A stretch of DNA of 64,000 nt from Thermomicrobiales bacterium (GTDB taxonomy: Bacteria > Chloroflexota > Chloroflexia > Thermomicrobiales > UBA6265). The notes under the pieces were generated by a model that had not been told where the DNA came from, did not search any database, and worked only from the letters and a program-made list of their open reading frames with translations. The position numbers and the translations under genes are program-made. Shown here one piece after another: positions 11,922 to 35,623 of this stretch; position 1 is the first letter of the stretch, and each line of letters opens with the position of its first letter. Where the stretch lies: positions 3,172-67,171 of the forward strand of contig JADYYO010000342.1 of the NCBI GenBank assembly GCA_020853615.1, given 5' to 3'.

Positions 11922-11981
11922 GGAGCGCGACGATGCACTGGGATGTTGATCTGATCTCCCCCAGCGTGTCAAGGCCCGCGC

Positions 11982-15535: not shown

Positions 15536-16009
15536 CTAGGACCGCTTGCGGCCCACGAAGTAGTAGAACGCGGCGCCACCCGCCAGCCACGCGAGCGGGT
15601 TGGACGCCAGGCTGATCACCGGATCGAGGACGTCGCCGGTGGCGGTGGCTCGGGCGGGCGGAAGCGTGGCCTGCGGCGCGCGCGCGACGACCTTGCCGGC
15701 CATCACGTCGCCGTAGATCTGCACCCAGGTCTTGTCCATCCACCGCGGCCCGGCGTAGACGCGCGTCGCGTCCATCGTGGCGCGGCCCATCCAGCCGTCG
15801 ACCGGCACGTGGTGGCCGCGCGCGGCGAGCATGTTCTGCAGCCCCTGGACGATCGCCTGCGTGGCCTGCGCGTACGGGTCGCAGGTCCGCGGCAGGAAGT
15901 ACATGTACGGGATCGCCATCTGGGCCAGGTACTGACCGATCCCGGCGTTGAGCACCATCTCGCGGACGTTCCACTGGTGCCCGCCGATCTGCTGGACGAG
16001 TTGGGCCAT
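15536..16009 (-). CDS. peptidoglycan-binding-like protein, tail-anchored
   Basis: Start MAQLVQQIGGH (cat 16007-16009); LQNMLAARGHHVPVDGWMGRATMDA; ends NPLAWLAGGAAFYYFVGRKRS. Confidence 0.7.
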   Translation of the reverse strand: MAQLVQQIGGHQWNVREMVLNAGIGQYLAQMAIPYMYFLPRTCDPYAQATQAIVQGLQNMLAARGHHVPVDGWMGRATMDATRVYAGPRWMDKTWVQIYGDVMAGKVVARAPQATLPPARATATGDVLDPVISLASNPLAWLAGGAAFYYFVGRKRS

Positions 16010-20208: not shown

Positions 20209-20892
20209 CTACGGGTTGACGACGAGATCGGGGTTGTTCTCGAGGAAGGTCTCGCGGCGCTTCTGGAGCTGGCGCAGCTCCTTCGGATCGCCGGGATCCC
20301 ACTGGTTGCACTCGTAGACCAGGGTCTCGGTGAGATCGGTCTCGCAGCCGGGCTGGCGCATGCACGTGCGGACGATCTGGCGCGGCGCCTTGACGGGCTT
20401 GCCATCGGGCAGCGGGACGACCTGGTTGCCCTCGCAGACCATGCACGGCACCCATCGCGGCGCCGGCTCGTCGATGACGTGGTGGTGCGCGCCCGCGTGA
20501 TTCGCCACCAGCCGGCACGGGATCTCGCGGTGGATGCCCTGGCTCGGGCGGTAGCCGCACGCCGCGTCGTCCGACGGGGCAAGATCGGGCGTCGCCATGA
20601 CCTGGCCGCGCCCCGCGCAGTTCGGGCACGGCGCCATGTCGCGCAACCCGTGGACCGGGTCGAAGGTCTGCGCCGGGTTGCCGATGTCCAGGTGGACCTT
20701 GAGCTCGCCGTAGTAGCGACACGGGCCCCGCAGGCAGATGAACGTCTGCGGCGTCGCCTCGGGCAGCGGCGCCGGCGCGCCCACGGTCCCGGCCGCGATG
20801 CCGCCGTCGGGCGCGATCGGCGGGAGCGGGGCGCTGTCGATGTTGGCGTAGACGTCGATCGGGCTCTTGTGGCGCGGGGGGAGAGTCGGCAC
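20209..20892 (-). CDS. Cys-rich protein, first gene of late operon
   Basis: GTG at 20892 (VPTLPPRHKSPIDVY...). Several CxxC-type pairs (CPNCAGRG, CMVCEG). The upstream part of tracked ORF 20209-21231 is low-GC3 noncoding. Confidence 0.6.
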   Translation of the reverse strand: MPTLPPRHKSPIDVYANIDSAPLPPIAPDGGIAAGTVGAPAPLPEATPQTFICLRGPCRYYGELKVHLDIGNPAQTFDPVHGLRDMAPCPNCAGRGQVMATPDLAPSDDAACGYRPSQGIHREIPCRLVANHAGAHHHVIDEPAPRWVPCMVCEGNQVVPLPDGKPVKAPRQIVRTCMRQPGCETDLTETLVYECNQWDPGDPKELRQLQKRRETFLENNPDLVVNP

Positions 20893-21464
20893 GGGTGGTG
20901 ACACTACGCGATCCACCGGGCGGGTTCTAGCGCCGTTCGTGCGGCGTTTTCGCGAGCCCCGATCGCGCACGGGCGCAGCTTTCGATCGCCACCAGGCCGA
21001 GACCGTTGTGGCGTTTGGGTGCCGCTCGAGCGCGCGGGCAACGCCAAACCGCCGCGCAACTGCGCTCGGGGCCCGGTTTGGCGTTAGCGGATCCTGTTGC
21101 CAAAACGCGGATCGCGGTGCCGTTCCGGAGCGATCGATGGCGCGCAAGCGCGATCTGCGGCCTGGTACCGCGGTGGCCCCGGTCCCGCGCTGGACCGGGC
21201 GCCGGATGGCCCCGGTGCGATGCGATGCCACACCAGCCTACAGTGTAGGTGTTGCGGCCCGCAACATGGTTAAAATCCCCCGCCAACCTGTCAGGTTCCC
21301 GGACACTTTCCGGTGGATTTTCACCACGTGCCCGGTCAAGTACCCGGAAACACTGCGCCTAGAACCCGGCATGCCGGATGCTTTGACCGGGAATGCGGCC
21401 GGAATCCTCCGGCGCCCCCGGCTGGACAACCGGGGCCCGTCAACCCTCACCGACAGGATACCCG
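20893..21464. promoter_or_regulatory. 572-bp divergent control region between late (-) and early (+) operons
   Basis: Lowest-GC stretch. TTTGGCG/CGCCAAA inverted repeats (21010-21108). Palindromes CCTACAgTGTAGG (21237-21249) and GTTGCGgccCGCAAC (21251-21265). TAAAAT box at 21271-21276. CCGGA-N4/5-TCCGG palindromes at 21299-21313 and 21399-21412. Confidence 0.6.
20901..20906 (-). promoter_or_regulatory. -10-like TAGTGT, 8 nt upstream of GTG 20892 (leaderless late-operon promoter candidate)
   Basis: Minus strand reads gatcgcgTAGTGTcaccacccGTG. Confidence 0.35.
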
Positions 21465-22160
21465 ATGCTGGCGACCGAAAGCCGCGCCCATGGCGCGGTG
21501 GTACAGTGCCCGTCCTGCGCCTGGACGGGGCCGCGCACCGCGCGGGGCCCCATCCCAGCGCACAAGGTGATTCGGCTGGCGGGCCCGGGCGATCGACTCG
21601 CCTCCCGCCACCGCGGGGCCGCTCCCGTGGGACCCCGTCCCGCGTGCGCGGGCCCCATGTCCGACCGGCAGATCGCCCGGGCCATCGCCCGGACGTTCGC
21701 TGCGGTGCGCATGCCGGACCTTGCGCGACTCTCGACCACGCTTCCCCCCGATCTCTGGGCTACCAGCGCGCTGTACCGCGCGCTGGCCCCGATGCCGTGG
21801 GCCCGCTACGTGGTGCGCGTGCTGGCGCCGCTGGACCACGACGGTTCGCGCCGGACCGTGGTGCAAGCGTTCCACGTCCGGGCCCATGCGGAAGCGTGGG
21901 CCCACGCGTGCGCGCTGGCGCTGGGCCCCGCGGGGACCAGCGCGCGCACCGCGGGCTACGTGACCGTGGGTGCGCTGGACACCCGCCCCAAGCGGTGGGC
22001 CACCATGGCGAGCTACTACGGGCGGGATCTGGGGCTCGAGTCCCCGGTCACGTACACCGCGATCGATCCGGGTGGCGTGGTGTTCCGGTACACGGATCCC
22101 GCGCACTACCCCGGCCATGGCGACGCACCGTCGCGTGACGCGTGGGATCGGATCTGGTGA
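21465..22160 (+). CDS. hypothetical early protein
   Basis: ATG 21465 (MLATESRAHGAVVQCPSCAW); alternative start 21657 (MSDRQIARAIAR); the C-terminal 160 aa clearly look like protein. Confidence 0.55.
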   Translation: MLATESRAHGAVVQCPSCAWTGPRTARGPIPAHKVIRLAGPGDRLASRHRGAAPVGPRPACAGPMSDRQIARAIARTFAAVRMPDLARLSTTLPPDLWATSALYRALAPMPWARYVVRVLAPLDHDGSRRTVVQAFHVRAHAEAWAHACALALGPAGTSARTAGYVTVGALDTRPKRWATMASYYGRDLGLESPVTYTAIDPGGVVFRYTDPAHYPGHGDAPSRDAWDRIW

Positions 22161-22444
22161 TGCTGGCCCCGGCCGCATACACCGTCGCGTCCGACGCGTA
22201 CGCCCGGGGCCGCTCCGGGAAGTCTCGCGACCCGCTCCCGGGCGAACGTCCGGACGCCCCGCTCCCGGCCACGGATCCGTGGCTCGCGGGTCACTTGGAT
22301 CGGTGGCTGGAGCGTTGCGCGCCGCATGGCGCGGACGTCGCCGAGCTACGGGCCCGGATCCTCGGGTACTACGCGACCGATCCCGAGGATGCCCACCGGA
22401 GCGATTACCCGACGATCCTCCGCCGGACCGGGGGCGCGCGATGA
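22160..22444 (+). CDS. hypothetical small protein
   Basis: MLAPAAYTVASDAYARG...; TGATG junction with the upstream gene. Confidence 0.55.
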   Translation: MLAPAAYTVASDAYARGRSGKSRDPLPGERPDAPLPATDPWLAGHLDRWLERCAPHGADVAELRARILGYYATDPEDAHRSDYPTILRRTGGAR

Positions 22445-22677
22445 TGCCGTGCGCGGTCATGGTGCGCCTCCCGGGCGGCCGGCGCATCCTGGACAGCTAC
22501 CGGCCCGGACGTCCGTACTACCCCGGCCCGGGCGCCGCATGGCGCCGGGCGATCGTGATCGCGCGCGCCACGCGTGGCGTGGTGGTCACGGTCGAGACCT
22601 GCAATGGCGCGCGCCTCGCATCGATCACCCGCGCCACCGACGGCGCGATCACGATCGACACCCGGAGAACCCCATGA
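22441..22677 (+). CDS. hypothetical small protein
   Basis: ATGA overlap; MMPCAVMVRLPGGRRILDSYRPG... Confidence 0.55.
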   Translation: MMPCAVMVRLPGGRRILDSYRPGRPYYPGPGAAWRRAIVIARATRGVVVTVETCNGARLASITRATDGAITIDTRRTP

Positions 22678-23012
22678 AGATCCAAGCGTACACGAGCGGT
22701 GGCCGGTCGGAGATCGCCGCGGGCGGGTTTGATGGCCCGTGGCGGTTCGATCGGTACCACCCGGCGCCCCCGGCCGACGGGTGCCGGACGTGCGCGCGCA
22801 TCGCCCCGGCCCAGTGCAGCGACCACCGGCCCGTCATGGAGCGGTGCATGATCCTCGGGCCGGGCGATCTCAGTCTCCGGTGCGTCGGGTACAGCGGCAA
22901 CGGGCCGGCCCGGCCCGAGGATCCCGCGTGGCGCGCGTACGATCCGCGCTGCGGAAGCTGCTACCTCGGGACGCCACACACGATCGCGCGCCACGATCAC
23001 GAGACCGCGTGA
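22674..23012 (+). CDS. Cys-rich small protein
   Basis: ATGA overlap; MKIQAYTSGGRSEIAAGG...CRTCARIAP...CGSCYLG. Confidence 0.6.
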   Translation: MKIQAYTSGGRSEIAAGGFDGPWRFDRYHPAPPADGCRTCARIAPAQCSDHRPVMERCMILGPGDLSLRCVGYSGNGPARPEDPAWRAYDPRCGSCYLGTPHTIARHDHETA

Positions 23013-23091
23013 TCCGGTCGCGGGGTCCGGGCCATCGCCCGGGCCGCCTCCCGACGCTGCGAACCCTTCCCCTTCCCTCTGGAGCATCACC
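23013..23091 (+). repeat. intergenic repeat element copy A (hairpin + conserved 21-mer + SD)
   Basis: CCGGTCGCGGGG, hairpin CCGGGCcatcGCCCGG (23027-23042), core GCCTCCCGACGCTGCGAACCC (23046-23066), CT-rich tract, GGAG. Confidence 0.8.
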
Positions 23092-23460
23092 ATGATCACG
23101 TTCGATCTGTACTGGACCGAATCCGCGCGCGCCTGGCACGCGGTCATGCCCGGCGCGTGCGGAAGCGGCGCCACGCCGTGGGAAGCGCTGGCGGAAGCGT
23201 TGACCGTCTGGGATCGCCGCGGACGCCCGGAGGCCGATCCCGCGGACGTCCGGCGCGGCGGCGCGGACTGGGTGATCGATCACGTGGTCGACCGCGGCCC
23301 CGGTCACTTCTACCGCTACCACGTGCGCGGCGTGAACCTGAACCAGCGGCCCGGCGGGTACGCCCGGATCATCGACTGGGACGTTCCGAGCATCGCCGAC
23401 CCGCGTTACGAGATCCTCCCGGGCGCGTGGGGTTCCGCTTGCTGGAAGTGTGCCGCGTGA
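23092..23460 (+). CDS. hypothetical protein (122 aa)
   Basis: Full ORF MITFDLYWTESARAWHAV..., GGAG RBS. Confidence 0.7.
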   Translation: MITFDLYWTESARAWHAVMPGACGSGATPWEALAEALTVWDRRGRPEADPADVRRGGADWVIDHVVDRGPGHFYRYHVRGVNLNQRPGGYARIIDWDVPSIADPRYEILPGAWGSACWKCAA

Positions 23461-23669
23461 GCGATCCCGCGATCTACCTATCGACGTCGGATGGGCGCTG
23501 GCGCGTGATCCACCACGGCGCGCAACTGTGTGCTGATACCGATCTGGCCGGTGCGCGACGGGTCGCCGAAAAGTACCGTCTCGATCTCTCTGGAGTTCCC
23601 GTGTGGAATGGCGATCTCGGAATCTGGGAGGATCGGCCCGGCGCCCACCGTGGCGGGGGTGGGCGGTGA
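23457..23669 (+). CDS. hypothetical small protein
   Basis: GTGA overlap; VSDPAIYLSTSDGRWRVIHHGAQLCAD... Confidence 0.55.
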   Translation: MSDPAIYLSTSDGRWRVIHHGAQLCADTDLAGARRVAEKYRLDLSGVPVWNGDLGIWEDRPGAHRGGGGR

Positions 23670-24034
23670 GCATCGCGATCGGGATCCGCTGGCACGTCTA
23701 CCAGGTGCGAGACGGCGCGGCCGATAAGCACGTGGGGACCGTGGTGGCCATGGACGCGGACGGCGCGCGCCGCAAGGCGTTCCTGCGGTTCGGCTCGGGC
23801 CGTACTGCGCCGGTCGGCGACCGGCCCGGCCGCGGGTTCGCGATCGGGTTCACCCTGCGGTGCGAGCGCTGGTGCGAGGTGCGGCCCGGCGCCCACCGTA
23901 CCGCGGCGGAATGCGCGCCGACGCTGCTACCGGATCGCACGTGCGCCGTGTGCGGCGTCGCGCACGCGAACCCGTGCCCGACCTGCGGCGCCGGCGGGTT
24001 CCACGCCGACGGATGCCCGGAGATCGACGCGTAG
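23666..24034 (+). CDS. Cys-rich small protein
   Basis: GTGA overlap; VSIAIGIRWHVYQVRDG...CAVCGVAHANPCPTCGAGGFHADGC. Confidence 0.6.
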   Translation: MSIAIGIRWHVYQVRDGAADKHVGTVVAMDADGARRKAFLRFGSGRTAPVGDRPGRGFAIGFTLRCERWCEVRPGAHRTAAECAPTLLPDRTCAVCGVAHANPCPTCGAGGFHADGCPEIDA

Positions 24035-24127
24035 CCCGGTCGCGGGGCCGGTAGACGGTCCGGGGCCCAGTGCCCCGGCGCGCCTCCCGACGCTGCGAAC
24101 CCCTTCCCTTGCCCGAGGATCAGCACC
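24035..24127 (+). repeat. intergenic repeat element copy B
   Basis: CCGGTCGCGGGG, hairpin CCGGGGCccagtGCCCCGG (24060-24078), identical core GCCTCCCGACGCTGCGAACCC (24082-24102), GAGGA. Confidence 0.8.
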
Positions 24128-24799
24128 ATGCGCCAGCGCTACGCGATCACCTACGTCTCGGATCGGTCCGGGCTGCGAACCCTGCGGTTCGCGAACCAGG
24201 GCCACAACCACTATGACGATCCGAAGCATGCCGCGGCCTGGCTGCGGGCCGCGCTCAAAAACTCGCCGACCGGGCTCGGCTCGGATCGCGAAAAGATCTC
24301 GCTCGCGGTGTCCCCGGTCGAGTGTTACGACCACGGCGACGCCACGGGCGTCTACGTCGACGCCGTGCTGATGACCCTGCCGGATTGCCTCTGGCTGGAT
24401 CTGGCGTCGATCCCCGACAGCCTCGCCGGGCGCGGTTTCTGGGACGAGATCAAGCGGTACTGGCCGACGCCGACCCGGCCCCAGTTGGCCACCGCGCGCC
24501 GCGTGTGCGCGCAGCTGGCGGCGCTGGCCCGGCCGTACGCCATGATCCAAGTCGCGGAGTGCAACGGGATCCCCGAGGCGGCCCGGCCCGCCCTGGCCGA
24601 GAGCGCGCGCAAGATCGAGGATCAGGCGCGCGCGCTGATCGCGGAGCTCCCGCCGCTCACCAGCGGCAAGCGCGCGGGCGTCAAGTTCACCGGCGACCCG
24701 CGCGGGTTCACGCTGCGGGTGGTGATCCCCGACGCGCCCCACGACGGCAACACGTGGGGCCGCGATGGGGAGTTTGGGATCGATCCCGGCTACGTGTGA
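24128..24799 (+). CDS. hypothetical protein (223 aa)
   Basis: Full ORF MRQRYAITYVSDRSGLRTLRFANQGHNHYDDPKH...; normal composition. Confidence 0.75.
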   Translation: MRQRYAITYVSDRSGLRTLRFANQGHNHYDDPKHAAAWLRAALKNSPTGLGSDREKISLAVSPVECYDHGDATGVYVDAVLMTLPDCLWLDLASIPDSLAGRGFWDEIKRYWPTPTRPQLATARRVCAQLAALARPYAMIQVAECNGIPEAARPALAESARKIEDQARALIAELPPLTSGKRAGVKFTGDPRGFTLRVVIPDAPHDGNTWGRDGEFGIDPGYV

Positions 24800-24810
24800 C
24801 GGCGCCGACG

Positions 24811-24835
24811 GATGGCCCGGGATGGCCCGGGCCAT
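24811..24835 (+). repeat. 10-bp perfect tandem repeat GATGGCCCGG x2 overlapping 14-bp palindrome ATGGCCCGGGCCAT
   Basis: Read directly at 24811-24835 in the gap between the 24128-24799 and 24873-25040 genes. Confidence 0.8.
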
Positions 24836-24872
24836 GCTTCGGAATCGTTCACCTCACCTTGAAAGGATCACC

Positions 24873-25040
24873 ATGCGACTCCGCCAGTACGTTCGGGACA
24901 ACCGCGATCACCTGACCGCCTACGTGCGCCAGGCGCTCGGCCGGCCCACCGTCAAGCTCACCACGTCCGATCTGGAAGACTGGATCCGGAACGATGAATC
25001 CCTGTATCTGGCGGCAAAGCGGGCGGGGGCGAACCCGTGA
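24873..25040 (+). CDS. hypothetical small protein (55 aa)
   Basis: AAGGA RBS; MRLRQYVRDNRDHLTAYVRQALGRPTVKL... Confidence 0.55.
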   Translation: MRLRQYVRDNRDHLTAYVRQALGRPTVKLTTSDLEDWIRNDESLYLAAKRAGANP

Positions 25041-25834
25041 TGCCCCCTTCCGTGACCGACCTTCCGGCCCGGCTCGAGCCTGCGGTTCGCGCGGTGATCG
25101 CCGCGCGCGATGCCGGCGAGCCTGGGATCCTGATGATCCGGAGCCCCGGGCTCGGGGCGAGCATGCTCGCGAGCCGGATCCCGACCATGATCGATCTCAC
25201 CGAGCACCAGCGGCGCTGGATCGCCGTCGAGCATGACGCGTCGACGTGGACGTGGGAGAGCAAGAGCCCCGCGCCGACCGGCGCGCCGTTCCAGGCGCCG
25301 CACTACACGATCAGCGCGCCCGCCATGGCCGCGCGCCCGCACCGGGCGCACGACGTGCGGTGTCTGAACCCGACCACGCCGCGGTGTCTCTGCGGGCTCG
25401 CGTCCGATCGCAGCGCCGGCGGGCACGTCGTGACGAAAGCGAGCGTGTGCGAGTTGGCGCGGTTTGGCGTCCTCTTGCTGGACGAGATCGAGGAATTCCA
25501 GCGGTCGACTCTCGAGGCCGCGCGCGAGCGGCTCACCCGGATGGGGCCCACCGCGCCGTTCGTCGTCGCGGCGGCGCGGCCCTGCCCGTGCGGATACGGC
25601 GCGCCGGAACCCGCGGGCTCGGCGTACTGGCGCGATTGCCAGTGCAGCGCCGACGCGATCGCGCGCCACGTCGCGCGCGTCCAGCGGCACGCCGGCATCC
25701 TGCGGCTGGTCCGGTCCGTGGTCCTGCCGACCAACGGGATCGCCAGCCGGCCCACCGAACCGGCCGGCGGCGGGCCCCGGTGCCCCGACCTGGCGACGAT
25801 CCGCGCCGCGATGGCGGCGGAGCGCGCGGCGTGA
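25037..25834 (+). CDS. ComM/YifB (Mg-chelatase-type) AAA+ -like protein, degenerate Walker A
   Basis: IRSPGLGASMLASRIP (vs GPPGSGKTMLA), APHYTIS (PHHTxS), FGVLLLDEIEEFQRSTLEAARERL, AARPCPCGY (NPCPCGY). Confidence 0.7.
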   Translation: MMPPSVTDLPARLEPAVRAVIAARDAGEPGILMIRSPGLGASMLASRIPTMIDLTEHQRRWIAVEHDASTWTWESKSPAPTGAPFQAPHYTISAPAMAARPHRAHDVRCLNPTTPRCLCGLASDRSAGGHVVTKASVCELARFGVLLLDEIEEFQRSTLEAARERLTRMGPTAPFVVAAARPCPCGYGAPEPAGSAYWRDCQCSADAIARHVARVQRHAGILRLVRSVVLPTNGIASRPTEPAGGGPRCPDLATIRAAMAAERAA

Positions 25835-26061
25835 CCCGCCGGGACCACTGTCCGGACTGCGGCGCCGCATACGCGGCGCTCCGGGTCGGCCTGACGTTCG
25901 CGGACGTGCGCCGGGAACTTCGGGCCGAGCCGGAACGCCGACGCGTCACCCGCCACACCGTCCTGGGCCGGCTGCACGAGCACAAGATGAACCTCTGGCG
26001 CTACTGGCACGGGCCGGGGCGCTGCGTTGCCGACACCCACCACGCCCGCGAGGCCGCATGA
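25831..26061 (+). CDS. small zinc-ribbon-like protein
   Basis: GTGA overlap; VTRRDHCPDCGAAYAALRVG... Confidence 0.55.
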   Translation: MTRRDHCPDCGAAYAALRVGLTFADVRRELRAEPERRRVTRHTVLGRLHEHKMNLWRYWHGPGRCVADTHHAREAA

Positions 26062-26606
26062 CCACCGCGACCATGACCGAACCGATCACCCCCACCCTGC
26101 CGCTCCGGAAGCTCCGCGAGATCCTCGTGAGCCTCCCGGTCGATCAGCGCTGCGATCCGCTCTGCCCGGGCTGGATCGTGTCCGAGGGCAACGGCGGGTT
26201 GCGCGTCGAGCGCTGCGACGACTGCGACGGCGAGCGGCGCGCGCTGGGGATGCCCCAGATCTACGATGAGGACGTGCGCCGGTTGCCCGAGGCGCGCCGC
26301 GAGCGGCTCCGCGTCCTGGCCGGCAAGCCGCTCCGCGTCCTAGGCGTCACGTGCGCGGCGATGCACTGGACCGACGGCACCGCCAGCCAGTGGCGGGTCT
26401 ACCGGGTGCCCGTCCGCGGCTACCCGCGCCCGATCAAGGCGCTGGATCTCAACAAGGGCACCGTCATCGCCACGCCGACGATGCGCGGCGACTACACCGC
26501 CAACCAGCGCGGCCTCGCCGCGCAGTACGCCACCCAGGAATGGCCCGCGTTCGCGTGGCCGTCCGCCGACGACGAGATCGCCACCCTCGACAGGAGCAAC
26601 GCATGA
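26058..26606 (+). CDS. hypothetical protein (182 aa)
   Basis: ATGA overlap; MTTATMTEPITPTLPLRKLREILV...CDPLCPGW...CDDCDG. Confidence 0.65.
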   Translation: MTTATMTEPITPTLPLRKLREILVSLPVDQRCDPLCPGWIVSEGNGGLRVERCDDCDGERRALGMPQIYDEDVRRLPEARRERLRVLAGKPLRVLGVTCAAMHWTDGTASQWRVYRVPVRGYPRPIKALDLNKGTVIATPTMRGDYTANQRGLAAQYATQEWPAFAWPSADDEIATLDRSNA

Positions 26607-27133
26607 GCCACGCCAAGCCTTCCCGCCCCGCCCCGCCGTTCTCGGCCGCCGTCCTGGCCTCCGCCCGCGACTACGTGCCGGCGCTGATCGAGGCGTGCGG
26701 CAACCTCAACCCGATTGAGGTGCTGCTCGAGACCGCGCACTACCAGGCGGTTCTCGATCGCCTCGACATGGCCGAGTTCGTCGTGGGGTGGTTCCACGGC
26801 GTCGCCGAGGCGGCCGGCGGCGACAACGTCCGCGAGACCTATCTGCGGCTGCTCGAGGCCACGCGCCCGACCGCGCCCGCGAAGCGCACGGCGCCCGCGA
26901 AGCCCAAGGCCAAGGCCCCCGCGCCGGGGAAGCGCCAGCGCGTGGCCGTGGTGCCGCCGGCCGAGCTCGCGCCCCCCGCGGCGCCGCCCGCGCCCGCGCC
27001 CGCGCTGCCGCCGCCCCCGGCCAGCAAGCGCCAGGTGATGGCGGCGATCTACGAACCGCCGACCGTCACGCCGGCCGCCAGCCCCCGCGGCCGGCGCCAG
27101 CGGGGCACCAACCAGGCGAGCCTCGCGCTCTAG
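26603..27133 (+). CDS. hypothetical protein with Pro/Ala/Lys-rich C-terminus
   Basis: ATGA overlap; MSHAKPSRPAPPFSAAVLASARDYVPALIEACG... Confidence 0.6.
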   Translation: MSHAKPSRPAPPFSAAVLASARDYVPALIEACGNLNPIEVLLETAHYQAVLDRLDMAEFVVGWFHGVAEAAGGDNVRETYLRLLEATRPTAPAKRTAPAKPKAKAPAPGKRQRVAVVPPAELAPPAAPPAPAPALPPPPASKRQVMAAIYEPPTVTPAASPRGRRQRGTNQASLAL

Positions 27134-27142
27134 GGGGCCGCC

Positions 27143-27304
27143 ATGCTGATCTGTCCCCGCTGCAAGACGCCCGTGCGGGCCTGTCACCGCCGCGATCCCG
27201 GATGCACCCATTGCGATGGGTGCGGCTGGTGCGGCACCACCGCGAAGGAAGCGCCCATGCCGAACAAAGCGATCAAGGATGTCGCGCCCGGGGTCGCGCC
27301 GTGA
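27143..27304 (+). CDS. 53-aa zinc-ribbon protein (below ORF-track cutoff)
   Basis: MLICPRCKTPVRACHRRDPGCTHCDGCGWCG...; stop overlaps the next GTG (GTGA). Confidence 0.5.
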   Translation: MLICPRCKTPVRACHRRDPGCTHCDGCGWCGTTAKEAPMPNKAIKDVAPGVAP

Positions 27305-27696
27305 CCCGCGCGCTGGACGTGCTGCCGGAGGCGGCGCGCCGAGCGATGGCCTTGCGCGCGTCGATGGAGTTGCTCGGCGTCGATCTCGAGCGTGTGATCC
27401 TGGCGCTCTCGAGCAGCGAGACGCCCGACCACGCGCGGATCGTCGTCGCCTACTGCGCCACCGAGGGGGATCTCACGAGCGCGCGCTACGTCGCGGTCTG
27501 CGGGGACGTGCCGGTGACGTGGTCGATCGACGAGATCCCGCGCGCCTGGAACGCGCTCACCCAACCCCAGCGCGGGCTCGAGCGGCAACGGTGGGTGTCG
27601 CCCGACGCGCTGACGCTGCTCGTGCTCGATCTCCACCGCGCCGGCGTGCCGATGCCGCGGCTCCCGCCCGGGCTGACGCCCCCACCCCCGAACTAG
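27301..27696 (+). CDS. hypothetical protein (131 aa)
   Basis: VTRALDVLPEAARRAMALRASMELLGVDLERV...; followed by hairpin CCCGGCccggcGCCGGG (27705-27721). Confidence 0.6.
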   Translation: MTRALDVLPEAARRAMALRASMELLGVDLERVILALSSSETPDHARIVVAYCATEGDLTSARYVAVCGDVPVTWSIDEIPRAWNALTQPQRGLERQRWVSPDALTLLVLDLHRAGVPMPRLPPGLTPPPPN

Positions 27697-27777
27697 CGGC
27701 GAAACCCGGCCCGGCGCCGGGTCGCGCGGACCACGCCCCACCGCGCCTGATGAGCCAGGGCACCCCAGGAGACCACC

Positions 27778-28365
27778 ATGATCGTGATCCACCCCGACCA
27801 CAGCCTGACCGACCTGCAAGGCACGCTGCACCGCTGCGCCACCCGGCGCGTGGCCGAGCTCGCCGCCGCGACCAGCGCGCTCCGCGCGGCCGGCTGGACG
27901 GTGCGCGGCCCCGACACGCGCGCCGGCTGGCGCCGCCCGCTGCTGCTCGCGGGCGAGCGGTGCGGTGAGCCGCTGGACGGCGCGCGGAGCGACGAGCGCT
28001 GCCAGGGGCTGGTGATCTTCCGTGGCGGCGGCGTCGACGCGACGTCGCCCGACGCGCTCGTGATCGACGCCTGCGCGGGCCTGCCGCTCGCGGTGATCGA
28101 GGATCGTGGCGTCACGACGGCCGCCCGCGCGATCGTCGCGCTCTACCTCGGGCCGCTGCCCGGCGAGCCCATCCTGTACACCACGCACGGAGACGTTCGC
28201 GGCCCCTGTGGCCACGCTCACAAGTCGATCGAGGCCGCGGTGCGGTGCTTGCGCTCCGATCTGCGCACGAATTCGGACCGCAATGTAATGCGGCTGATCA
28301 ACGGGGGGCGTCAGCCGCTCACGCTCGACGAGGCTCGACTGGTGGATCACTTGGTGGAGGCGTAG
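27778..28365 (+). CDS. hypothetical protein (195 aa)
   Basis: AGGAGA RBS; MIVIHPDHSLTDLQGTLHRC... Confidence 0.75.
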   Translation: MIVIHPDHSLTDLQGTLHRCATRRVAELAAATSALRAAGWTVRGPDTRAGWRRPLLLAGERCGEPLDGARSDERCQGLVIFRGGGVDATSPDALVIDACAGLPLAVIEDRGVTTAARAIVALYLGPLPGEPILYTTHGDVRGPCGHAHKSIEAAVRCLRSDLRTNSDRNVMRLINGGRQPLTLDEARLVDHLVEA

Positions 28366-28368
28366 CCC

Positions 28369-29037
28369 GTGCCCAAGCCTATTCGCCCGCCGGTCTTTTC
28401 ACGCCGCTCGCCGCTCGCGCCCGGGCGCGTCCAGAACGCGGCGGCCCGCTGGTCCGACGCCATGCGCTACCCGCGCGAGCTCACCGACGACGCCGCGACC
28501 GGCGCCGCCGACGCGTACGCCGCCGAGCACGCCGCGCCCGTCATGCCGACGCGCGAGGCGTTCGTGGCGGCGGCCGGCCGCGCGCGCCTTGCGATCGCCG
28601 CGCTGGCGCTGGTGGCGGGCTGCGCTGGCCCCGCGCCCGAGCCCGGCCCGGACGGCGGCGCCGACGCCGGCGCCGACGCCGCGGACGGCGGCGCGTGCGC
28701 CGATCAGTGCCTGCCGCCCGACGCCGGCGACGCCGGCGCGGGCCTGCCGATCAACGCGGCGTGCGAGCCGACGCTCGACGAGTGCGCGCCCGGCCTGACG
28801 TGCCGGATCGCGTCCGCGCACGTCGGCACGTGCCGGCCGATCGGCACGCTCGCGGCCGGCGCGATCTGCACGGCGAGCGATCAGTGCGGCGCCGCCCAGG
28901 CGTGCCTGCCGGCGGAGGCACCCAACCGGCTGCGCTGCCAGGTCGTCTGCGCGATCGCGCGCCCGCTCGAGCGCTGCCAGGCCGGCGAGACCTGCGCCCC
29001 CCAGTGGGGTGCGGACACCGGCGTCTGCATCCCCTGA
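28369..29037 (+). CDS. Cys-rich lipoprotein
   Basis: Lipobox LALVAGC then a D/G/A linker and a 12-Cys domain (CADQC, CEPTLDEC, CTASDQC). Start is GTG 28369, or more likely ATG 28543. Confidence 0.7.
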   Translation: MPKPIRPPVFSRRSPLAPGRVQNAAARWSDAMRYPRELTDDAATGAADAYAAEHAAPVMPTREAFVAAAGRARLAIAALALVAGCAGPAPEPGPDGGADAGADAADGGACADQCLPPDAGDAGAGLPINAACEPTLDECAPGLTCRIASAHVGTCRPIGTLAAGAICTASDQCGAAQACLPAEAPNRLRCQVVCAIARPLERCQAGETCAPQWGADTGVCIP

Positions 29038-29052
29038 TTCCCCAGGAGTCCC

Positions 29053-29853
29053 ATGGAGATCCAACACTTCCCATACGCCCACCTGCGCGTCGCCGCGTGC
29101 AACCCGCGCGTCCAGATCGATCCCGCCGAGCTGCGCCAGCTGGCGCTGCACGTCGCGCGCGACGGCCTCTTGACGCCGCTCCGGGTGACGCCCGGCGGCG
29201 ACATCCTGGCCGGCCAGCGGCGCTGGCGCGCGATCGGGCTCGTGATCGCGTGGCGCGAGCATTTGGTCGACGGCGAGGATGGCGCGCAGCCCGACGAGCA
29301 TGCGCTGTTCGACATGCGGGCCCAAGCGCTGATCGGCGCGGTGCCGTGCGTCGTCGACGACGCCGGCGCCGCCCAGGCGCCGGTCCGCGCGCTCGCCGAG
29401 AACCTGCACCACGAGCCGATGAGCAGCTACGACACGGCCATGGCCTACGCCGCGCTGGCGGGCCCCGTCAACGAGCCGCGCCGGACGATGACCGAGCTTG
29501 CCCGCGAGACCGGGCGCAGCAAGAGCACCGTCTCGCGCATGCTGACCGCGTGGCGTCAGGCCGGCCCCGAGCTCCACGCCGCGTGGCAGGCGGGCCTGGC
29601 GTTCGAGCGCGTGCTCGCGCTGGCGGCGCTGCCGCTCGAGGCGCAGCGCGACGCGCTCGCTGGCGGTCACAAGAGTCACGGCCGGCCTGGGATCGAGGCC
29701 ACCAAGGCGGTGCTGCGCGAACTGCGCGAGACGCATGGCGACAGCCACCCGTACTCTGACGGCGCGATCGCCGCGCTGCGGTTCGTCGCCGGCGAGTTGC
29801 CGATGGACCAGTTCATCTCGACCATCAAGGCGGAAGTCGACGTCTCGCCATGA
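29053..29853 (+). CDS. ParB/Srx-fold N-terminal domain + HTH protein (ParB-like)
   Basis: LLTPLRVTPGGDILAGQRRWRA (GxRRxxA box), ENLHHEPMSSYDTA, HTH MTELARETGRSKSTVSRML; AGGAG RBS. Confidence 0.75.
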   Translation: MEIQHFPYAHLRVAACNPRVQIDPAELRQLALHVARDGLLTPLRVTPGGDILAGQRRWRAIGLVIAWREHLVDGEDGAQPDEHALFDMRAQALIGAVPCVVDDAGAAQAPVRALAENLHHEPMSSYDTAMAYAALAGPVNEPRRTMTELARETGRSKSTVSRMLTAWRQAGPELHAAWQAGLAFERVLALAALPLEAQRDALAGGHKSHGRPGIEATKAVLRELRETHGDSHPYSDGAIAALRFVAGELPMDQFISTIKAEVDVSP

Positions 29854-29892
29854 CGTCCGCGACCGCGATCACCCCCAGCACGGAGAATCCCT

Positions 29893-30105
29893 GTGACCAC
29901 TGAGAACCGCCCCGAGTGGAAACCCCACCGCGCAATCATCGCCGACCTGACGCCGAACCGCGCCACCGTCGTGCGCGTGCTGCCGCGCGGCGCGAAGGAC
30001 GCCGAGCACCGCCCTGACCAGCGGATGGTCGCCTCCGATGAGCCGATGTTCGTCGGTGATAGAGTGTGGATAACCGGACCCCAGGCCGTTGATATCGTGG
30101 GCTGA
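29893..30105 (+). CDS. hypothetical small protein
   Basis: GTG start with GGAGA RBS; TTENRPEWKPHRAIIADL... Confidence 0.55.
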   Translation: MTTENRPEWKPHRAIIADLTPNRATVVRVLPRGAKDAEHRPDQRMVASDEPMFVGDRVWITGPQAVDIVG

Positions 30106-30119
30106 ACAAGGAGATCGTC

Positions 30120-30590
30120 ATGGGTAATACCACCGCATTGATCTGTGGCCGCGGCACCGCACCGGCAGGCCTCCAAGCTGTCGTCGCGCAGGCAGACGCG
30201 CGCTGCGTCGTCATCGACCACCGCGATCCCGACGGGCAACGCAGCTGGTGGATCGATGGGCCGAATCGCGGTGAGCCGTTCGACGGCCAGTTGCAGCGCC
30301 GAATCTGCGCCGCCGCCAAGGCGCAGGGGATTGCCGGGTTCGTCGACGAGAGCGAGGCGACGGTGCCGGTCGCGCCCGCGCCGCGGCGGCGGGGCGGCGT
30401 CCACCGCCACCGCCCCAAGCACACCGACGAGCGCGTGTACATGGGCGAGCACCCCGCCGGCGCCGCCTACGCCAAGGTCCAGTCCGCCCAAGGTGGCGTC
30501 GCCATCCGCGACACGTGCAGCTGCGGCGCGACTCGCCTGACGCTCGCCAATGGCGCCCACGTCGCCCGCGGCAGTTGGACCTCGCCGTGA
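30120..30590 (+). CDS. hypothetical protein (156 aa)
   Basis: AAGGAG RBS; MGNTTALICGRGTAPAGLQAVV... Confidence 0.7.
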   Translation: MGNTTALICGRGTAPAGLQAVVAQADARCVVIDHRDPDGQRSWWIDGPNRGEPFDGQLQRRICAAAKAQGIAGFVDESEATVPVAPAPRRRGGVHRHRPKHTDERVYMGEHPAGAAYAKVQSAQGGVAIRDTCSCGATRLTLANGAHVARGSWTSP

Positions 30591-30799
30591 GATTCTACCG
30601 CGTTCACTTCAAGGCCTTCGACGTCGGATCGGCTGGCTTCGAGTTCTTCACCAATGAAGCCGCCGCCCGGAAGGCGCTGCGGCGCGACGCGCGGATGGAG
30701 CACGACCCGAGCTCGCTCGAGGTGATCGACGTCGAGCCTACCAAGGCGGGGATCTTGCGCGCCCTGCAACGCTACGCGAGCCACCCGGACAACGGGTAG
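30587..30799 (+). CDS. hypothetical small protein
   Basis: GTGA overlap; VRFYRVHFKAFDVGSAGFEFFTNEAAARKAL... Confidence 0.6.
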   Translation: MRFYRVHFKAFDVGSAGFEFFTNEAAARKALRRDARMEHDPSSLEVIDVEPTKAGILRALQRYASHPDNG

Positions 30800-30802
30800 A
30801 CT
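30797..30802 (+). promoter_or_regulatory. TAGACT box, 7 nt upstream of ATG 30810
   Basis: gGTAGACTGgcgcggATG; the TAG is also the stop of the upstream gene. Confidence 0.45.
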
Positions 30803-30809
30803 GGCGCGG

Positions 30810-30929
30810 ATGCTAACGGTCATGCGGGTTTGTTTCGGGATTGCCTTGTTGGCGTTCATCATCTACGCGACGCTGGCTGTGGTCGCAGGCGTCCGCCTGC
30901 TTTGGTGGCGCCTTCATCGCCGTCGGTAG
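30810..30929 (+). CDS. 39-aa single-TM protein (not in ORF track)
   Basis: MLTVMRVCFGIALLAFIIYATLAVVAGVRLLWWRLHRRR; sits just upstream of the lysis genes. Confidence 0.45.
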   Translation: MLTVMRVCFGIALLAFIIYATLAVVAGVRLLWWRLHRRR

Positions 30930-30945
30930 TGGTAGCGTCGCTGGC

Positions 30946-31191
30946 ATGGGATCGCTCTTGCGGCGCTGCGCGCCGTTCGTCGCCGTGCTGGCCTCGCTCC
31001 TGATCGCCTGCGCCACCCACGGCTGGACGCCGTGGTGCTGGGCCTGCGCGTGCGTCTGGACGGGCGACGCCCCGGCCACCCGGGCCAACGTCGACGGGGC
31101 GCTCTGCGCCTACCACGAGGCGCACGACGACGACGCGATCGTGCCGACGTGCCAGCGGTGCCTGATCGAGCGGGGGCTGGTCGCGATCTGA
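30946..31191 (+). CDS. small Cys-rich membrane/secreted protein
   Basis: MGSLLRRCAPFVAVLASLLIACATHGW...; the upstream part of tracked ORF 30841-31191 overlaps the 39-aa gene in another frame. Confidence 0.5.
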   Translation: MGSLLRRCAPFVAVLASLLIACATHGWTPWCWACACVWTGDAPATRANVDGALCAYHEAHDDDAIVPTCQRCLIERGLVAI

Positions 31192-31197
31192 TAGGAT
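31192..31197 (+). promoter_or_regulatory. TAGGAT box, 7 nt upstream of ATG 31205
   Basis: ctgaTAGGATggcggccATG. Confidence 0.4.
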
Positions 31198-31204
31198 GGC
31201 GGCC

Positions 31205-31771
31205 ATGCGTTTCTTCCGCCCGTCCCTGTTGTTCCTGACCCTCTGTTGCTTTGCGCTGCTCACGATGCTCTCGGTGCCGTGGGCGCTGGCCCAGGTCGCG
31301 CCCGCGACGCCGACCGCGTCCGACGGTGGGATGTTCTGGCAGGTCACCGACGGCGTGCTCAGGATCGTCGGGCCGGCGCTGGCGATCGTCCTGACCGCCC
31401 TGGCTGCGTTGCTGGTCCGGACGTTCCAGCAGAAGACGCACGCGACCGTCACCGATCGGCAGATGGCGATGATTGACACGTGGGTGGACGAGGCGGTGCG
31501 CTGGGTGGAGGAGCAGGTCCACAAGCGCGCCAAGGCCGGCGCCGGCAAGCCCGGCCCCGAGAGCAAGCTCGAGATGGGCGTGCGCTACGTGCTCGACCTG
31601 GTGGAAGCGGCTGGCATCCCCGGGTGGACCGCCCAGAAGGTCCAGCAGAAGATCGAGGCGGCGCTCCAGCACGAGCGGGTGGTGAACCGATCGCGCAGCT
31701 CGCTTGCGGAGGCGTTCGGCATGGGTCCGGACGCGATCAAGCCGCCGCCCAGCACCGGCGACGCGCCGTGA
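31205..31771 (+). CDS. holin, LL-H-like family
   Basis: N-terminal hydrophobic segments, then WVDEAVRWVEEQVHKRAKAGAGKPGPESKLEMGVRYVLDLVEAAGIP...KIEAAL, matching the LL-H holin pattern. Alternative ATG at 31196. Confidence 0.6.
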   Translation: MRFFRPSLLFLTLCCFALLTMLSVPWALAQVAPATPTASDGGMFWQVTDGVLRIVGPALAIVLTALAALLVRTFQQKTHATVTDRQMAMIDTWVDEAVRWVEEQVHKRAKAGAGKPGPESKLEMGVRYVLDLVEAAGIPGWTAQKVQQKIEAALQHERVVNRSRSSLAEAFGMGPDAIKPPPSTGDAP

Positions 31772-32280
31772 GCATCGCGATCGGCCTCGCCGCGCTGGCG
31801 GTGATCGGGAGCCTGGTGGCGCTCGCGTTCTACGCGCTGCGCCAGGCGTTCAAGCGCACCGACCAGGCGCTCGAGGGGTGGGTGTCGGCGCTCAAGCACG
31901 CCGACCGCGCGCTCGCGCTCCAGGACCGCGTTGACGTGCTGGGGCGGGAGGTGGAGAGTCGAGATCATGCCCTGGCCGACGTCAACCGCGAGATCACCCA
32001 GCACCGAAGCGCCCTCGAAGTCGTCCGCCGCCAGCGCGACGCCGCGCGCGACGGGCTCCAGGATATCCTCGCGCGCGTCACCGCCGGCGGCGATCTCGCC
32101 GGGCCGGCGGCTGCGCCTCGCGTGGCTCAGCTGGTGCGCGCTCAGCTTGACCGCCTGCAAGCTCTGGGGGGGCGGAGCGCCAGCGGCACGTTGCCCGGAG
32201 CCCCTGCCCCCGCTGCCGGCGCCGCCGCCGACGCTCCAGGTAGTGGAGCGGACGTGCGCGGGCCCGGACCTGCCGGCTGA
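31768..32280 (+). CDS. i-spanin-like protein (N-terminal TM + coiled coil)
   Basis: GTGA overlap; VSIAIGLAALAVIGSLVALAFYAL followed by a R/E/D/L-rich coiled coil. Confidence 0.6.
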   Translation: MSIAIGLAALAVIGSLVALAFYALRQAFKRTDQALEGWVSALKHADRALALQDRVDVLGREVESRDHALADVNREITQHRSALEVVRRQRDAARDGLQDILARVTAGGDLAGPAAAPRVAQLVRAQLDRLQALGGRSASGTLPGAPAPAAGAAADAPGSGADVRGPGPAG

Positions 32281-32461
32281 CGCGCTGGCCTTCCTGGCGC
32301 GCGACTGGCCCGAGCCCGATGCCCAGGGCGGCACCTATCTCTCCCCGCTCGCGACGATCAAGTTCGTGACCGCGCTGACCGCGCTGAACGACTACATCGA
32401 GGACGACCATGCCCAGTGCCACGCGCCGGCGCCCGCCCCAGCCGCAGCCCCAGACCCGTAG
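31967..32461 (+). CDS. o-spanin-like lipoprotein overlapping the i-spanin gene in another frame (start unresolved)
   Basis: RLRLAWLSWCALSLTAC (lipobox Cys codon 32156-32158) then Pro-rich CPEPLPPLPAPPP. No ATG/GTG lies close upstream (CTG at 32111; first ATG at 31967). Confidence 0.4.
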   Translation: MPWPTSTARSPSTEAPSKSSAASATPRATGSRISSRASPPAAISPGRRLRLAWLSWCALSLTACKLWGGGAPAARCPEPLPPLPAPPPTLQVVERTCAGPDLPADALAFLARDWPEPDAQGGTYLSPLATIKFVTALTALNDYIEDDHAQCHAPAPAPAAAPDP

Positions 32462-32999
32462 GTGCCGGTTCGAGGGCCGCCACGGCCGCTGCACCAGCAT
32501 CGCCACCAGCGACGGTTTTTGCGGTCGCCATCTCGAGGAGATCGCCGCCGACGTCGCGACGCCGACCCTGGGCGAGTCGATCCTGAACCTGTTTGCCGGC
32601 ACGCCGCGCCAGCAGCGCAAGGCCCAGGAGCACGTCGTGGCGGGGCTCGGCCAGTTCTTCCAGCAGACGATCGATCGGCGCTTCCCGCCGCCCGGCGCGC
32701 CGCCGGCTGGTGGCCAGGTCGGGCCCGGCCCGGCGGGGCCGGCGCGGCCACGCGTCTCGCCCGAGGCGATCGAGCGGCGCAAGCGGCAGATCGCGGCGCG
32801 CGCGACGATCGGGTTCGAGCCCGACGAGCCGCTGACCGTCGACGCGATCCGCAAGCGCCGCCATGAGCTCATGCGGGTCTGGCACACCGACAAGGCGGCC
32901 GGCGCGCCGGACCCGACGCGCGAGAAGATGGTCCGCCAGATCAACGCCGCCACCGAGTTCCTGCTGGCGCACGTCGCGCCCCCTCCGCCCCAACCGTAG
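32409..32999 (+). CDS. J-domain-like protein (HTD instead of HPD) with N-terminal Cys/His cluster
   Basis: LTVDAIRKRRHELMRVWHTDKAAG...REKMVRQINAATEFLL; N-terminal CRFEGRHGRCTSIATSDGFCGRH. Confidence 0.65.
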   Translation: MPSATRRRPPQPQPQTRRCRFEGRHGRCTSIATSDGFCGRHLEEIAADVATPTLGESILNLFAGTPRQQRKAQEHVVAGLGQFFQQTIDRRFPPPGAPPAGGQVGPGPAGPARPRVSPEAIERRKRQIAARATIGFEPDEPLTVDAIRKRRHELMRVWHTDKAAGAPDPTREKMVRQINAATEFLLAHVAPPPPQP

Positions 33000-33017
33000 C
33001 GGCGCCCCCCGGGGCGG

Positions 33018-33026
33018 TGGTAGCAT
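33018..33026 (+). promoter_or_regulatory. extended -10-like TGGTAGCAT upstream of the SLT gene
   Basis: Identical 9-mer to 40208-40216. Confidence 0.3.
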
Positions 33027-33058
33027 GACCCCCAGCTTTCCCAGGCTGGGGCCCCGCG

Positions 33059-33679: not shown

Positions 33680-33683
33680 TCCG

Positions 33684-34310: not shown

Positions 34311-34319
34311 CGAGCCCCC

Positions 34320-35621: not shown

Positions 35622-35623
35622 CG

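Follow-up and report, generated by a model that had tools for sequence, protein, structure and literature searches.

Repeated spacers in the rightward operon

The DNA analyzed here is a 64,000-nt stretch of contig JADYYO010000342.1 (assembly GCA_020853615.1, Thermomicrobiales bacterium), hereafter called the window; its GC content is 72.5%, and it carries a phage-like element with very few recognizable genes. Our subject is a cassette that is repeated between genes of the rightward operon of this element. The phage is a novel one of high GC content, and its rightward operon is rich in ORFans; the cassettes there form a small family of intercistronic spacers, two of them near-identical and a possible third one diverged. 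Three consecutive gaps separate plus-strand genes here: between G and H (23013-23091), J and K (24035-24127), and K and L (24800-24872); the remaining junctions of the operon are mostly 4-nt stop/start overlaps. Gene calls at the cassettes, all on the plus strand, came from frame bias in third-position GC content (GC3), and none of the proteins flanking the cassettes has a Pfam, PHROG, or NCBIfam match. The cassettes sit 1.4 and 2.4 kb into the operon, between cistrons, and none lies at its head; the label "early operon," used in the first-pass annotation of this DNA, is an assumption from gene order. The parts of the three spacers are listed below (SD, Shine-Dalgarno sequence; MFE, minimum free energy).

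23010..23012, plus strand: stop codon TGA of the upstream ORFan G (22674-23012); the cassette begins 1 nt after it
23014..23025, plus strand: copy 1 12-mer CCGGTCGCGGGG, basal part of the 5' arm; in the window genome, the 11 nt GGCCGGTAGAC are deleted directly after it
23024..23045, plus strand: copy 1 apical hairpin GGTCCGGGC-CATC-GCCCGGGCC, 9 bp with one G-U pair; its inner part is CCGGGC/CATC/GCCCGG
23046..23066, plus strand: copy 1 21-mer, the 3' arm of the palindrome; its first ~19 nt lie opposite the 5' arm
23067..23091, plus strand: copy 1 leader, in which SD GGAG (23081-23084) stands between a pyrimidine tract poor in G and a spacer; ORFan H starts with the ATG at 23092
24032..24034, plus strand: stop codon TAG of the upstream ORFan J (23666-24034)
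24038..24100, plus strand: copy 2 complete imperfect palindrome, a predicted long hairpin with an MFE of −39.2 kcal/mol
24036..24058, plus strand: copy 2 5' arm, made of the 12-mer (24036-24047) plus CCGGTAGACGG (24048-24058)
24060..24078, plus strand: copy 2 apex, CCGGGGC-CCAGT-GCCCCGG
24082..24102, plus strand: copy 2 3' arm, the 21-mer
24103..24127, plus strand: copy 2 leader, comprising a pyrimidine tract and SD GAGGA (24115-24119); the ATG of ORFan K is at 24128
24794..24852, plus strand: third gap, a predicted long imperfect hairpin from the K stop codon (−40 kcal/mol; z, −3.4 to −5.0)

The 21-mer GCCTCCCGACGCTGCGAACCC occurs exactly at 23046-23066 and 24082-24102, twice in 64 kb where 0.04 occurrences are expected, and no further match with ≤3 mismatches was found in the window. 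The 12-mer is exact at 23014-23025 and 24036-24047 and at no other place in the window. The repeats, hairpins, and SD sequences described in the first-pass annotation are thus all present at their positions, and the repeat is noncoding and beyond chance. By gene calls the cassettes are noncoding, which is supported by the indels of 1, 2-3, and 11 nt that population variants hold inside them. The flanking proteins are unrelated (G versus J; H versus K versus X124, a 124-aa ORFan discussed below), and the spacer alone is repeated; this rules out a segmental duplication that carried genes along.

Each core is followed by a C/T-rich tract and an SD sequence 7-8 nt ahead of the ATG. These had been counted as parts of the cassette; they are present at both copies but are generic. 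Among window genes with a real gap upstream, positions −30 to −15 average 47% C and 24% G, versus 36% of each overall; a C/T tract with an SD is what ribosome-binding leaders ordinarily look like in this genome. A G-poor leader is the usual way to keep a ribosome-binding site unstructured in GC-rich RNA.

A long imperfect palindrome and its variants

The cassette had been described as modular, with a 12-mer box, a hairpin, and an independent 21-mer core. This division fails: the 21-mer is a 3' arm that pairs with the 12-mer plus CCGGTAGAC, so that a single imperfect palindrome of ~63 nt, with a small GC hairpin as its tip, has the 12-mer in its 5' arm and the 21-mer as its 3' arm. The palindrome starts 1-4 nt past the upstream stop codon. 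Exact-protein look-ups recovered many metagenome contigs of the phage from >10 samples (individual relatives are given L numbers below), yielding nine distinct full-length cassette variants. We scored pairing across their alignment as standard pairs per alignment cell: columns 7-35 against 41-69, without bulges, pair in 80.5% of cells, and a shift of the 3' partner by 1-3 columns lowers this to 36-46%. The full cassette also matched its own reverse complement (nhmmer E, 0.0035). The predicted hairpin has 23 pairs and five 1-by-1 mismatches over 28 positions, with an MFE of −39 to −43 kcal/mol, and the MFE fold of the isolated cores is exactly the palindrome hairpin: the full copy 1 of L002 folds at −43.2 kcal/mol (z, −3.6), and z is −2.3 for copy 2 of L001 and −1.7 for copy 2 of the window. 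The core of window copy 1 retains the basal helix with an 11-nt bulge (z, −0.8). Energy is not what makes the case for a long hairpin; that case rests on pairing in register, on the full-length variants, and on the pattern of conservation.

All strain-level metagenomic relatives whose sequence reaches this position carry the cassette. The 11 nt GGCCGGTAGAC (equivalently, CCGGTAGACGG) missing from window copy 1 are kept in 4 of 4 other copy 1 variants and 4 of 4 complete copy 2 variants; window copy 1 is a derivative that has lost 11 nt from its 5' arm. Across the nine variants the arms are invariant apart from two single-nucleotide polymorphisms (SNPs), both compatible with pairing: a C-to-T change in the 12-mer turns C-G into U-G, and another at the second nucleotide of the 21-mer makes an A-U pair of what was an A.C mismatch. 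The tip and the leader vary among strains while the arms are nearly frozen. Four versions of the tip were found (CCGGGC/CATC/GCCCGG, CCGGGGC/CCAGT/GCCCCGG, CCGGGGC/ATC/GCCCCGG, and CCGGG/CATGC/CCCGG); all hold a GC stem of 5-9 bp, and among their differences is one inserted G/C pair. The outer arms lie 21 to 25 nt apart, a variation that a hairpin tolerates; a dimeric protein on duplex DNA would not, because the helical phase of B-DNA shifts.

Arm identity persists where the neighborhood has diverged. Haplotype B, seen in L001 and its relatives, differs from the window by ~9% over the final ~85 nt of gene J, and its copy 2 arms are identical to those of the window at 60 of 60 nt, for which we estimate a chance of ~0.003. 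In L052, genes G and H are 5-6% diverged, and cassette 1 differs by one SNP (estimated P, ~0.07). This pattern suggests constraint on the arms.

The third gap repeats the design with a different sequence. It holds an irregular hairpin of ~59 nt, followed by a G-poor leader and an SD, and within it are the 10-bp tandem repeat (GGATGGCCCG twice, 24810-24829) and the 14-bp palindrome (ATGGCCCGGGCCAT, 24822-24835) that had been noted from sequence. The window and L001-L010 are identical across this gap (11 of 11 sequences). Its match to the cassette profile is weak (E, 0.016), there is no clear sequence similarity, and by its architecture it is possibly a diverged third family member. That three successive spacers share one design favors a structural role over a sequence-specific promoter.

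Other stable structures occur in the window. The top-scoring long imperfect hairpin of the whole window, above all shuffles in the palindrome scan, is at 25874-25940, inside the gene at 25831-26061. Four other intergenic gaps have significantly stable RNA: 9649-9793 (z, −5.2), 57126-57311 (z, −3.3), 11863-11981 (z, −2.75), and 8161-8288 (z, −2.45). GGGCCC/CCCGGG-type stems recur in most gaps, which suggests U-less GC hairpins as the general punctuation of this phage.

Beyond the strain population, the cassette disappears. The 21-mer itself is kept in every strain-level relative that covers it and absent from more distant relatives; L011-L014, distantly related through K or the AAA+ gene (33-51% protein identity), have no cassette. 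At shallow depth the outcome favors the first-pass annotation, which had named absence of the 21-mer from related elements as part of its refutation. An 18-mer core of the cassette had no match in IMG/VR; it had 12 matches in JGI metagenomes and 17 in GTDB genomes, as many as chance predicts, and none of these stands in a cassette context. Searches by blastn of phages (INPHARED) and plasmids (PLSDB) gave nothing relevant to the cassette, and a profile search of the window plus ~9 kb past both ends gave no extra copy save the weak third-gap match, for a copy number of 2-3 in about 73 kb. Because it is absent from distant relatives and public collections, we conclude that the cassette is private to one phage population. 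One of the distant relatives, L014, whose AAA+ protein shows 33% identity, carries a 22-nt repeat of its own, CGGGCGGTGCGGCCGTGACGCG, at three junctions between genes (10826-10847, 10990-11011, and 15598-15619); this hints that repeats peculiar to a lineage could be a common feature of gene junctions in these phages.

This distribution is compatible with a selfish or neutral palindromic repeat: a quasi-palindrome duplicated into a second gap, in the manner of miniature inverted-repeat transposable elements (MITEs) or repetitive extragenic palindromic (REP) sequences or by illegitimate recombination, and maintained by gene conversion with no regulatory role. The lack of covarying pairs, the tolerance of an 11-nt arm deletion in one copy, and the thermodynamically unremarkable window copies agree with such an origin, as does a leader variant, v9 (L052 and relatives), that resembles a chimera of copies 1 and 2, as conversion would produce. 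However, no transposase or REP-associated tyrosine transposase (RAYT) gene was found, nor were further copies in about 73 kb or in GTDB genomes; the placement is precise, in the same orientation, 1-4 nt past a stop codon, and ahead of a functional leader; the arms are unchanged inside blocks diverging by 5-10%; and the third gap shares the architecture with a different sequence. REP sequences, bacterial interspersed mosaic elements (BIMEs), and MITEs are dispersed in many copies, unlike the 2-3 cassettes in about 73 kb, and the 18-mer is at chance level in GTDB genomes and JGI metagenomes, a comparison that does not exhaust the possible hosts. We consider a neutral origin unlikely.

Promoter, terminator, and RNA signals

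The cassette is not a promoter. As the first-pass annotation had surmised for the 21-mer, nothing resembles a housekeeping promoter: a σ70 scan found no sites in 20500-34000, and by eye neither strand of the cassette has TTGAC-N17-TANNNT or any hexamers at 16-18-nt spacing. Candidate σ54 and extracytoplasmic function (ECF) promoters in the 21-mer and leader were rejected by eye, since GG-N10-GC does not fit and GAACC has no CGTC-type −10 element at 16-17 nt. Of the alternatives listed in that annotation, a phage activator site and an alternative-σ promoter have nothing that points to them, and the 21-mer is accounted for as the 3' arm. A search for shared intergenic k-mers that might mark a phage-specific promoter gave only generic GGGCCC-type stem sequences. 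Elsewhere in the window, by eye, σ70-like candidates lie at 52645 (TTGACG-N18-TATACT), 44889 (TTGACG-N17-CAGGAT), 45088 (TTGCAA-N17-CAGGAT), and 56587 (TTGACA-N18-TAGAGG); TTGAC-N17/18-TAnnnT candidates in other gaps suggest that the host polymerase is probably conventional.

Nor is the cassette a canonical intrinsic terminator, defined as a GC hairpin plus a U-rich tract of 7-9 nt. The earlier remark that no U tract follows either hairpin is correct: the terminator scan was empty at the cassettes, where the 9 nt after the stem are CUUCCCCUU and CCUUCCCUU. Purified RNA polymerases require a U tract for intrinsic termination, and U-less hairpins do not terminate alone (PMC3993855).

Promoter-early stem-loops (PeSLs) of T4-type phages (Arbiol et al. 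2010, PMC2839356; Comeau et al. 2014, PMC4122927) offer a close comparison. Like the cassette, they are conserved composite motifs of up to ~100 bp that span the distance from the upstream stop to the next ATG, with a G/C-run stem-loop, in an ORFan-rich hyperplastic region; in both, strain indels and replacements have junctions in the motif (here X124, L061, and the copy 1 boundary, described below), with other regional indels of our phage lying elsewhere. PeSLs, however, are defined by a strong σ70-like early promoter and an AT-rich upstream region, neither of which the cassette has; they occur in dozens of copies rather than 2-3; their stem-loop is short, whereas the cassette stem is a 63-nt imperfect palindrome; and they share no sequence or host relationship with it. 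The likeness is thus one of location and gene shuffling, and with the defining promoter absent the cassette is not a PeSL.

A composite of this kind could still exist in another form, with the hairpin attenuating upstream transcription and the 21-mer/leader serving as a non-σ70 promoter for a phage-modified or phage-encoded polymerase or σ, so that each ORFan block would be its own transcription unit. The layout (stop, stem-loop, conserved block, SD, ATG) in an ORFan-rich, indel-prone location matches that of PeSLs (PMC2839356, PMC4122927); primary sequence is kept beyond the need of pairing, with mismatches frozen; and in Cluster K mycobacteriophages, extended start-associated sequences (ESAS) join an inverted repeat to a promoter (PMC11373665). 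We regard this composite as quite unlikely: there are no σ70-like hexamers, σ54 and ECF spacings misfit by eye, host-type TTGAC-N17/18-TAnnnT candidates occur elsewhere in the window, and no RNA polymerase or σ domain was recognized among the ~70 window open reading frames (ORFs) scanned, which included all large ones. Moreover, there are only 2-3 copies in >70 kb, none heading the operon, and ~19 of the 21 nt of the 21-mer are explained as a hairpin arm. The start-associated sequences (SAS) and ESAS (Pope et al. 2011, PMC3203893; PMC11373665) resemble the cassette in being repeated intergenic motifs of high-GC phages just upstream of the ribosome-binding sites of several genes, with an inverted repeat and a variable center. 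They differ in that ESAS arms are 15-17 bp, contain SigA-like −35/−10 hexamers, and are followed by a conserved 13-bp SAS, whereas cassette arms are ~28 nt, contain no promoter hexamers, and precede an SD region that differs between copies.

No Rfam family was found in the window, and the cassettes had no Rfam match at the gathering score or at E ≤ 5. This bears on a further alternative in the first-pass annotation, a processive-antitermination RNA (nut/put-like) or other protein- or polymerase-binding RNA that would modify elongating RNA polymerase. The cassette is structured, conserved in sequence, free of a U tract, and placed inside a long phage operon, and its frozen primary sequence suggests specific recognition. 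We nevertheless judge this very improbable: besides the lack of an Rfam match, no boxA-like sequence is visible; the two copies lie 1 kb apart inside the operon, 1.4 and 2.4 kb in and between cistrons, rather than singly just after a promoter; and the terminator scan found no canonical terminators downstream that would need overriding. In the same way, the cassette differs from λ nut and HK022 put in having no boxA plus boxB or family match and in not being a single site just after the early promoter. An RfaH ops-like element, GCCGGTAGACGG, which fits 8 of 10 specified positions of GGCGGTAGnnTG, was dismissed because it is absent from window copy 1 and its context is wrong.

The coding frames around the cassettes show one regularity: both upstream genes end in GCG plus stop, and the GCG of the 21-mer is in frame with the downstream ATG via a Pro/Ser-rich stretch (23007-23012/23059-23094; 24029-24034/24095-24130). 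We rejected gene-60-style programmed translational bypass. The copies are homologous and hence count as one coincidence, and an additional C in L052/L055 breaks the frame; other GCG codons occur in the gap, the third gap and the X124-K spacer misfit, and the downstream genes each have a well-spaced SD.

The reading that we tentatively put forward, while holding it to be short of probable, is an RNA hairpin between cistrons that would serve in processing, in guarding 3' ends, or in attenuation and that doubles as a homology patch for recombination. The palindrome in the sense transcript would form a long irregular hairpin punctuating the polycistronic mRNA; this could serve as an RNase III-type double-strand processing site, as a barrier to 3' exonucleases guarding the upstream cistron, or both, with at most a weak, translation-sensitive role as an attenuator, and would leave the downstream gene with a short unstructured leader. 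An RNase processing site had been one of four alternatives in the first-pass annotation, and it fits the irregular intercistronic hairpin found here. The 60-90 bp of shared sequence would in addition provide homology for ORFan exchange between cocirculating genomes, a step that is partly shown by the strain variation described below.

A close structural counterpart is found in T7 and T3, whose early RNase III sites (work of Dunn and Studier) reportedly comprise several irregular hairpins, alike among themselves and ~50-60 nt long, that contain internal mismatches, lie between cistrons of one operon, and lack a U tract. When RNase III cuts the T7 sites, the upstream RNA keeps a protective hairpin at its 3' end and the downstream RNA begins with a short leader. 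The cassette is likewise an irregular, mismatched intercistronic hairpin of about two helical turns without a U tract; it differs in having no sequence similarity to those sites and in numbering only 2-3. It fits the structural definition of a phage RNase III site and is a putative site by its modeled structure. Streptomyces phage phiC31 reportedly has poly-U-less hairpin terminators beside phage-specific early promoters (Ingham et al. 1993/1995). The likeness would lie in U-less GC hairpins in gaps of a high-GC early region followed by conserved phage-specific sequence; the cassette differs in having no repeated promoter consensus beyond the hairpin arm.

Several findings weigh against the RNA hairpin. 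The nine variants, near-identical as they are, hold no pair changed on both sides, and hence no true covariation. Because all variants are close relatives from one population, the frozen arms could reflect recency, gene conversion between copies, or recombination tracts. Template switching at quasi-palindromes can give paired "compensatory" tip changes without selection. With flanks, the window copies have z values of −0.25 and −0.65 and are not more stable than shuffled sequence; the isolated window cores are unexceptional (z, −0.8 and −1.7); and a simple palindrome scan ranks the window copies no higher than shuffled sequence. Window copy 1 persists despite the 11-nt loss in one arm. Both strands fold equally well, so a DNA-level hairpin is also compatible, and five internal mismatches are kept in all full-length variants, which argues for sequence-specific recognition, something that a hairpin serving stability alone could do without. 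What the data show is the repeat, the palindrome, the way conservation is distributed over it, the lack of promoter and terminator consensus, and the gain and loss of a neighboring gene; that the palindrome acts as RNA, is cut or gives protection, or affects regulation is what we infer from them. There is a slim chance that the palindrome is instead a phage-specific recognition element, folded as DNA or RNA and bound by an early protein; such an element would either target ORFan cassette exchange, as an integron- or PeSL-like device in a high-GC phage lineage not seen before, or control how each ORFan block is expressed. The gain and loss of X124, L061, the variable tip, and the mismatches that persist are compatible with a recognition element; ordinary homologous recombination explains them equally well.

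Gene exchange at the cassettes and the wider element

X124 is present or absent among strains directly behind the 21-mer of copy 2. In L001, L002, L004, L005, L008, and L010, the 25-nt copy 2 leader of the window gives way to a different leader followed by X124 and a leader-like spacer of 28 nt. L061 is recombinant, with the tip and leader start of the window type (A) followed by the leader end of type B and X124; its crossover falls in the SD region. In L001 and L006, a boundary between diverged and identical blocks falls within cassette 1. Other gene indels in the region, however, use unrelated microhomologies inside or at the ends of genes; the cassette is one recombination joint among several, not a dedicated or general shuffling device.

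These observations also bear on a DNA-level site, that is, a cruciform or single-strand hairpin recognized by a phage protein, acting either in recombination for ORFan exchange (attC-like or linker) or as a regulator- or ParB-like binding site. Conserved ends around a variable center are the pattern of attC sites, both strands fold equally well, and X124 gain and loss beside copy 2, the L061 recombinant, and the block boundary at copy 1 place exchange at the cassettes. A cluster of GCGAACC half-sites (23059-25084), the perfect palindrome GGTTCGCGAACC at 24186, and a gene for a ParB_N plus helix-turn-helix (HTH) protein at 29053-29853 could provide for binding. On the other side, there are no R'/R'' boxes (GTTRRRY / RYYYAAC), X124 and K are separated by only 28 nt that contain no palindrome, the sole tyrosine recombinase is a short phage-type integrase (289 aa) 20 kb away, the mapped crossover is in the leader/SD region as ordinary homologous recombination predicts, other indels use microhomology, and the variable arm spacing disfavors a duplex operator. 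We think a DNA-level site distinctly improbable. In detail, the cassette resembles integron attC sites as an imperfect palindrome behind an ORF, with conserved outer parts, a center variable in sequence and length, and presence or absence of a single ORF adjoining it; unlike them, it has arm ends, TGCGAAC and GTTCGCA, that misfit the R''/R' cores (RYYYAAC / GTTRRRY), no IntI-type integrase nearby, no site after the variable ORF X124, and a crossover in the leader. By their membership criteria, the cassette is not an attC site, a nut or put site, an ESAS, or a REP element.

The rightward ORFan region is hyperplastic among near-identical strains (21600-31000 compared with L001-L010 and L052-L064), with many gene-level events within 10 kb. 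Gene I (23475-23673) is absent from L009, L052, and L055, with its junction at a 7-nt CGCGATC microhomology; 25869-26467 is absent from L004 and L005, and 27805-28276 from L004; L002 and L003 have other sequence in place of 28168-28612 and 29796-30942. The left junction (25868) of the 600-bp deletion in L004 and L005 directly adjoins the hairpin at 25874-25940. SNP density flips abruptly between blocks of 0% and blocks of 5-10%. An exact 18-nt direct repeat, CGGCCCGGCGCCCACCGT, lies at 23634-23651 and 23882-23899 in the unrelated adjacent genes I and J, encoding RPGAHR in both; it may be a recombination scar or hotspot. Nine of the 18 GCGAACC/GGTTCGC sites of the window lie within 23059-25084; the last 11 nt of the 21-mer (GCTGCGAACCC) recur at 24172 in gene K, adjoining the perfect 12-bp palindrome GGTTCGCGAACC (24186-24197), and CCTGCGGTTCGCG recurs at 24181 and 25079. 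This cluster could be a candidate protein-binding half-site or could reflect RNA pairing with the 3' arm of the cassette.

As for the element as a whole, a leftward gene block (78-20892), which includes a weak tape-measure-like protein, is separated by a 764-bp divergent gap from the rightward block (21657-41188), where small ORFans come first and are followed by an AAA+ (Mg_chelatase-like) protein, the ParB_N/HTH protein, a holin, an SLT lysozyme, and an M23 peptidase. The integrase gene (43976-44845) follows, and downstream of it are more rightward genes, among them two for DNA methyltransferases. The divergent control gap carries the palindromes CTACAGTGTAG and GTTGCGGCCCGCAAC (21238-21265). 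A Cys-rich, zinc-ribbon-like ORF of 53 aa (beginning MLICPRCKTPVRACHRRDPGCTHCDGCGWCG) lies at 27143-27304, within a 167-bp gap of the gene calls, and is kept in L002 with amino acid changes; a 1,066-aa Ig/cadherin-like protein is encoded directly past the left end of the window (L048, 11561-14761). A tRNA search of the window found none, and among the ORFs scanned no terminase, portal, or capsid protein was recognized; most large proteins of the element have no Pfam or PHROG match. No similar phage was found in INPHARED or IMG/VR, and protein-guided searches of IMG/VR gave no relatives, yet the element recurs across many Logan and ENA samples: it represents a very poorly characterized phage lineage.

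The cassette is best described as a promoter-less version of the repeated stem-loop cassettes known from accessory-gene regions of other phages. Its significance is modest, in that it opens no long-standing question and is limited to one population, where it is a handy marker of strain-level mosaicism. If the hairpins are processing or stability signals, an uncultivated high-GC phage with almost no recognizable genes would punctuate its accessory operon in the style of T7, and conserved intergenic cassettes that double as joints for ORFan swapping would extend beyond the T4-type phages.

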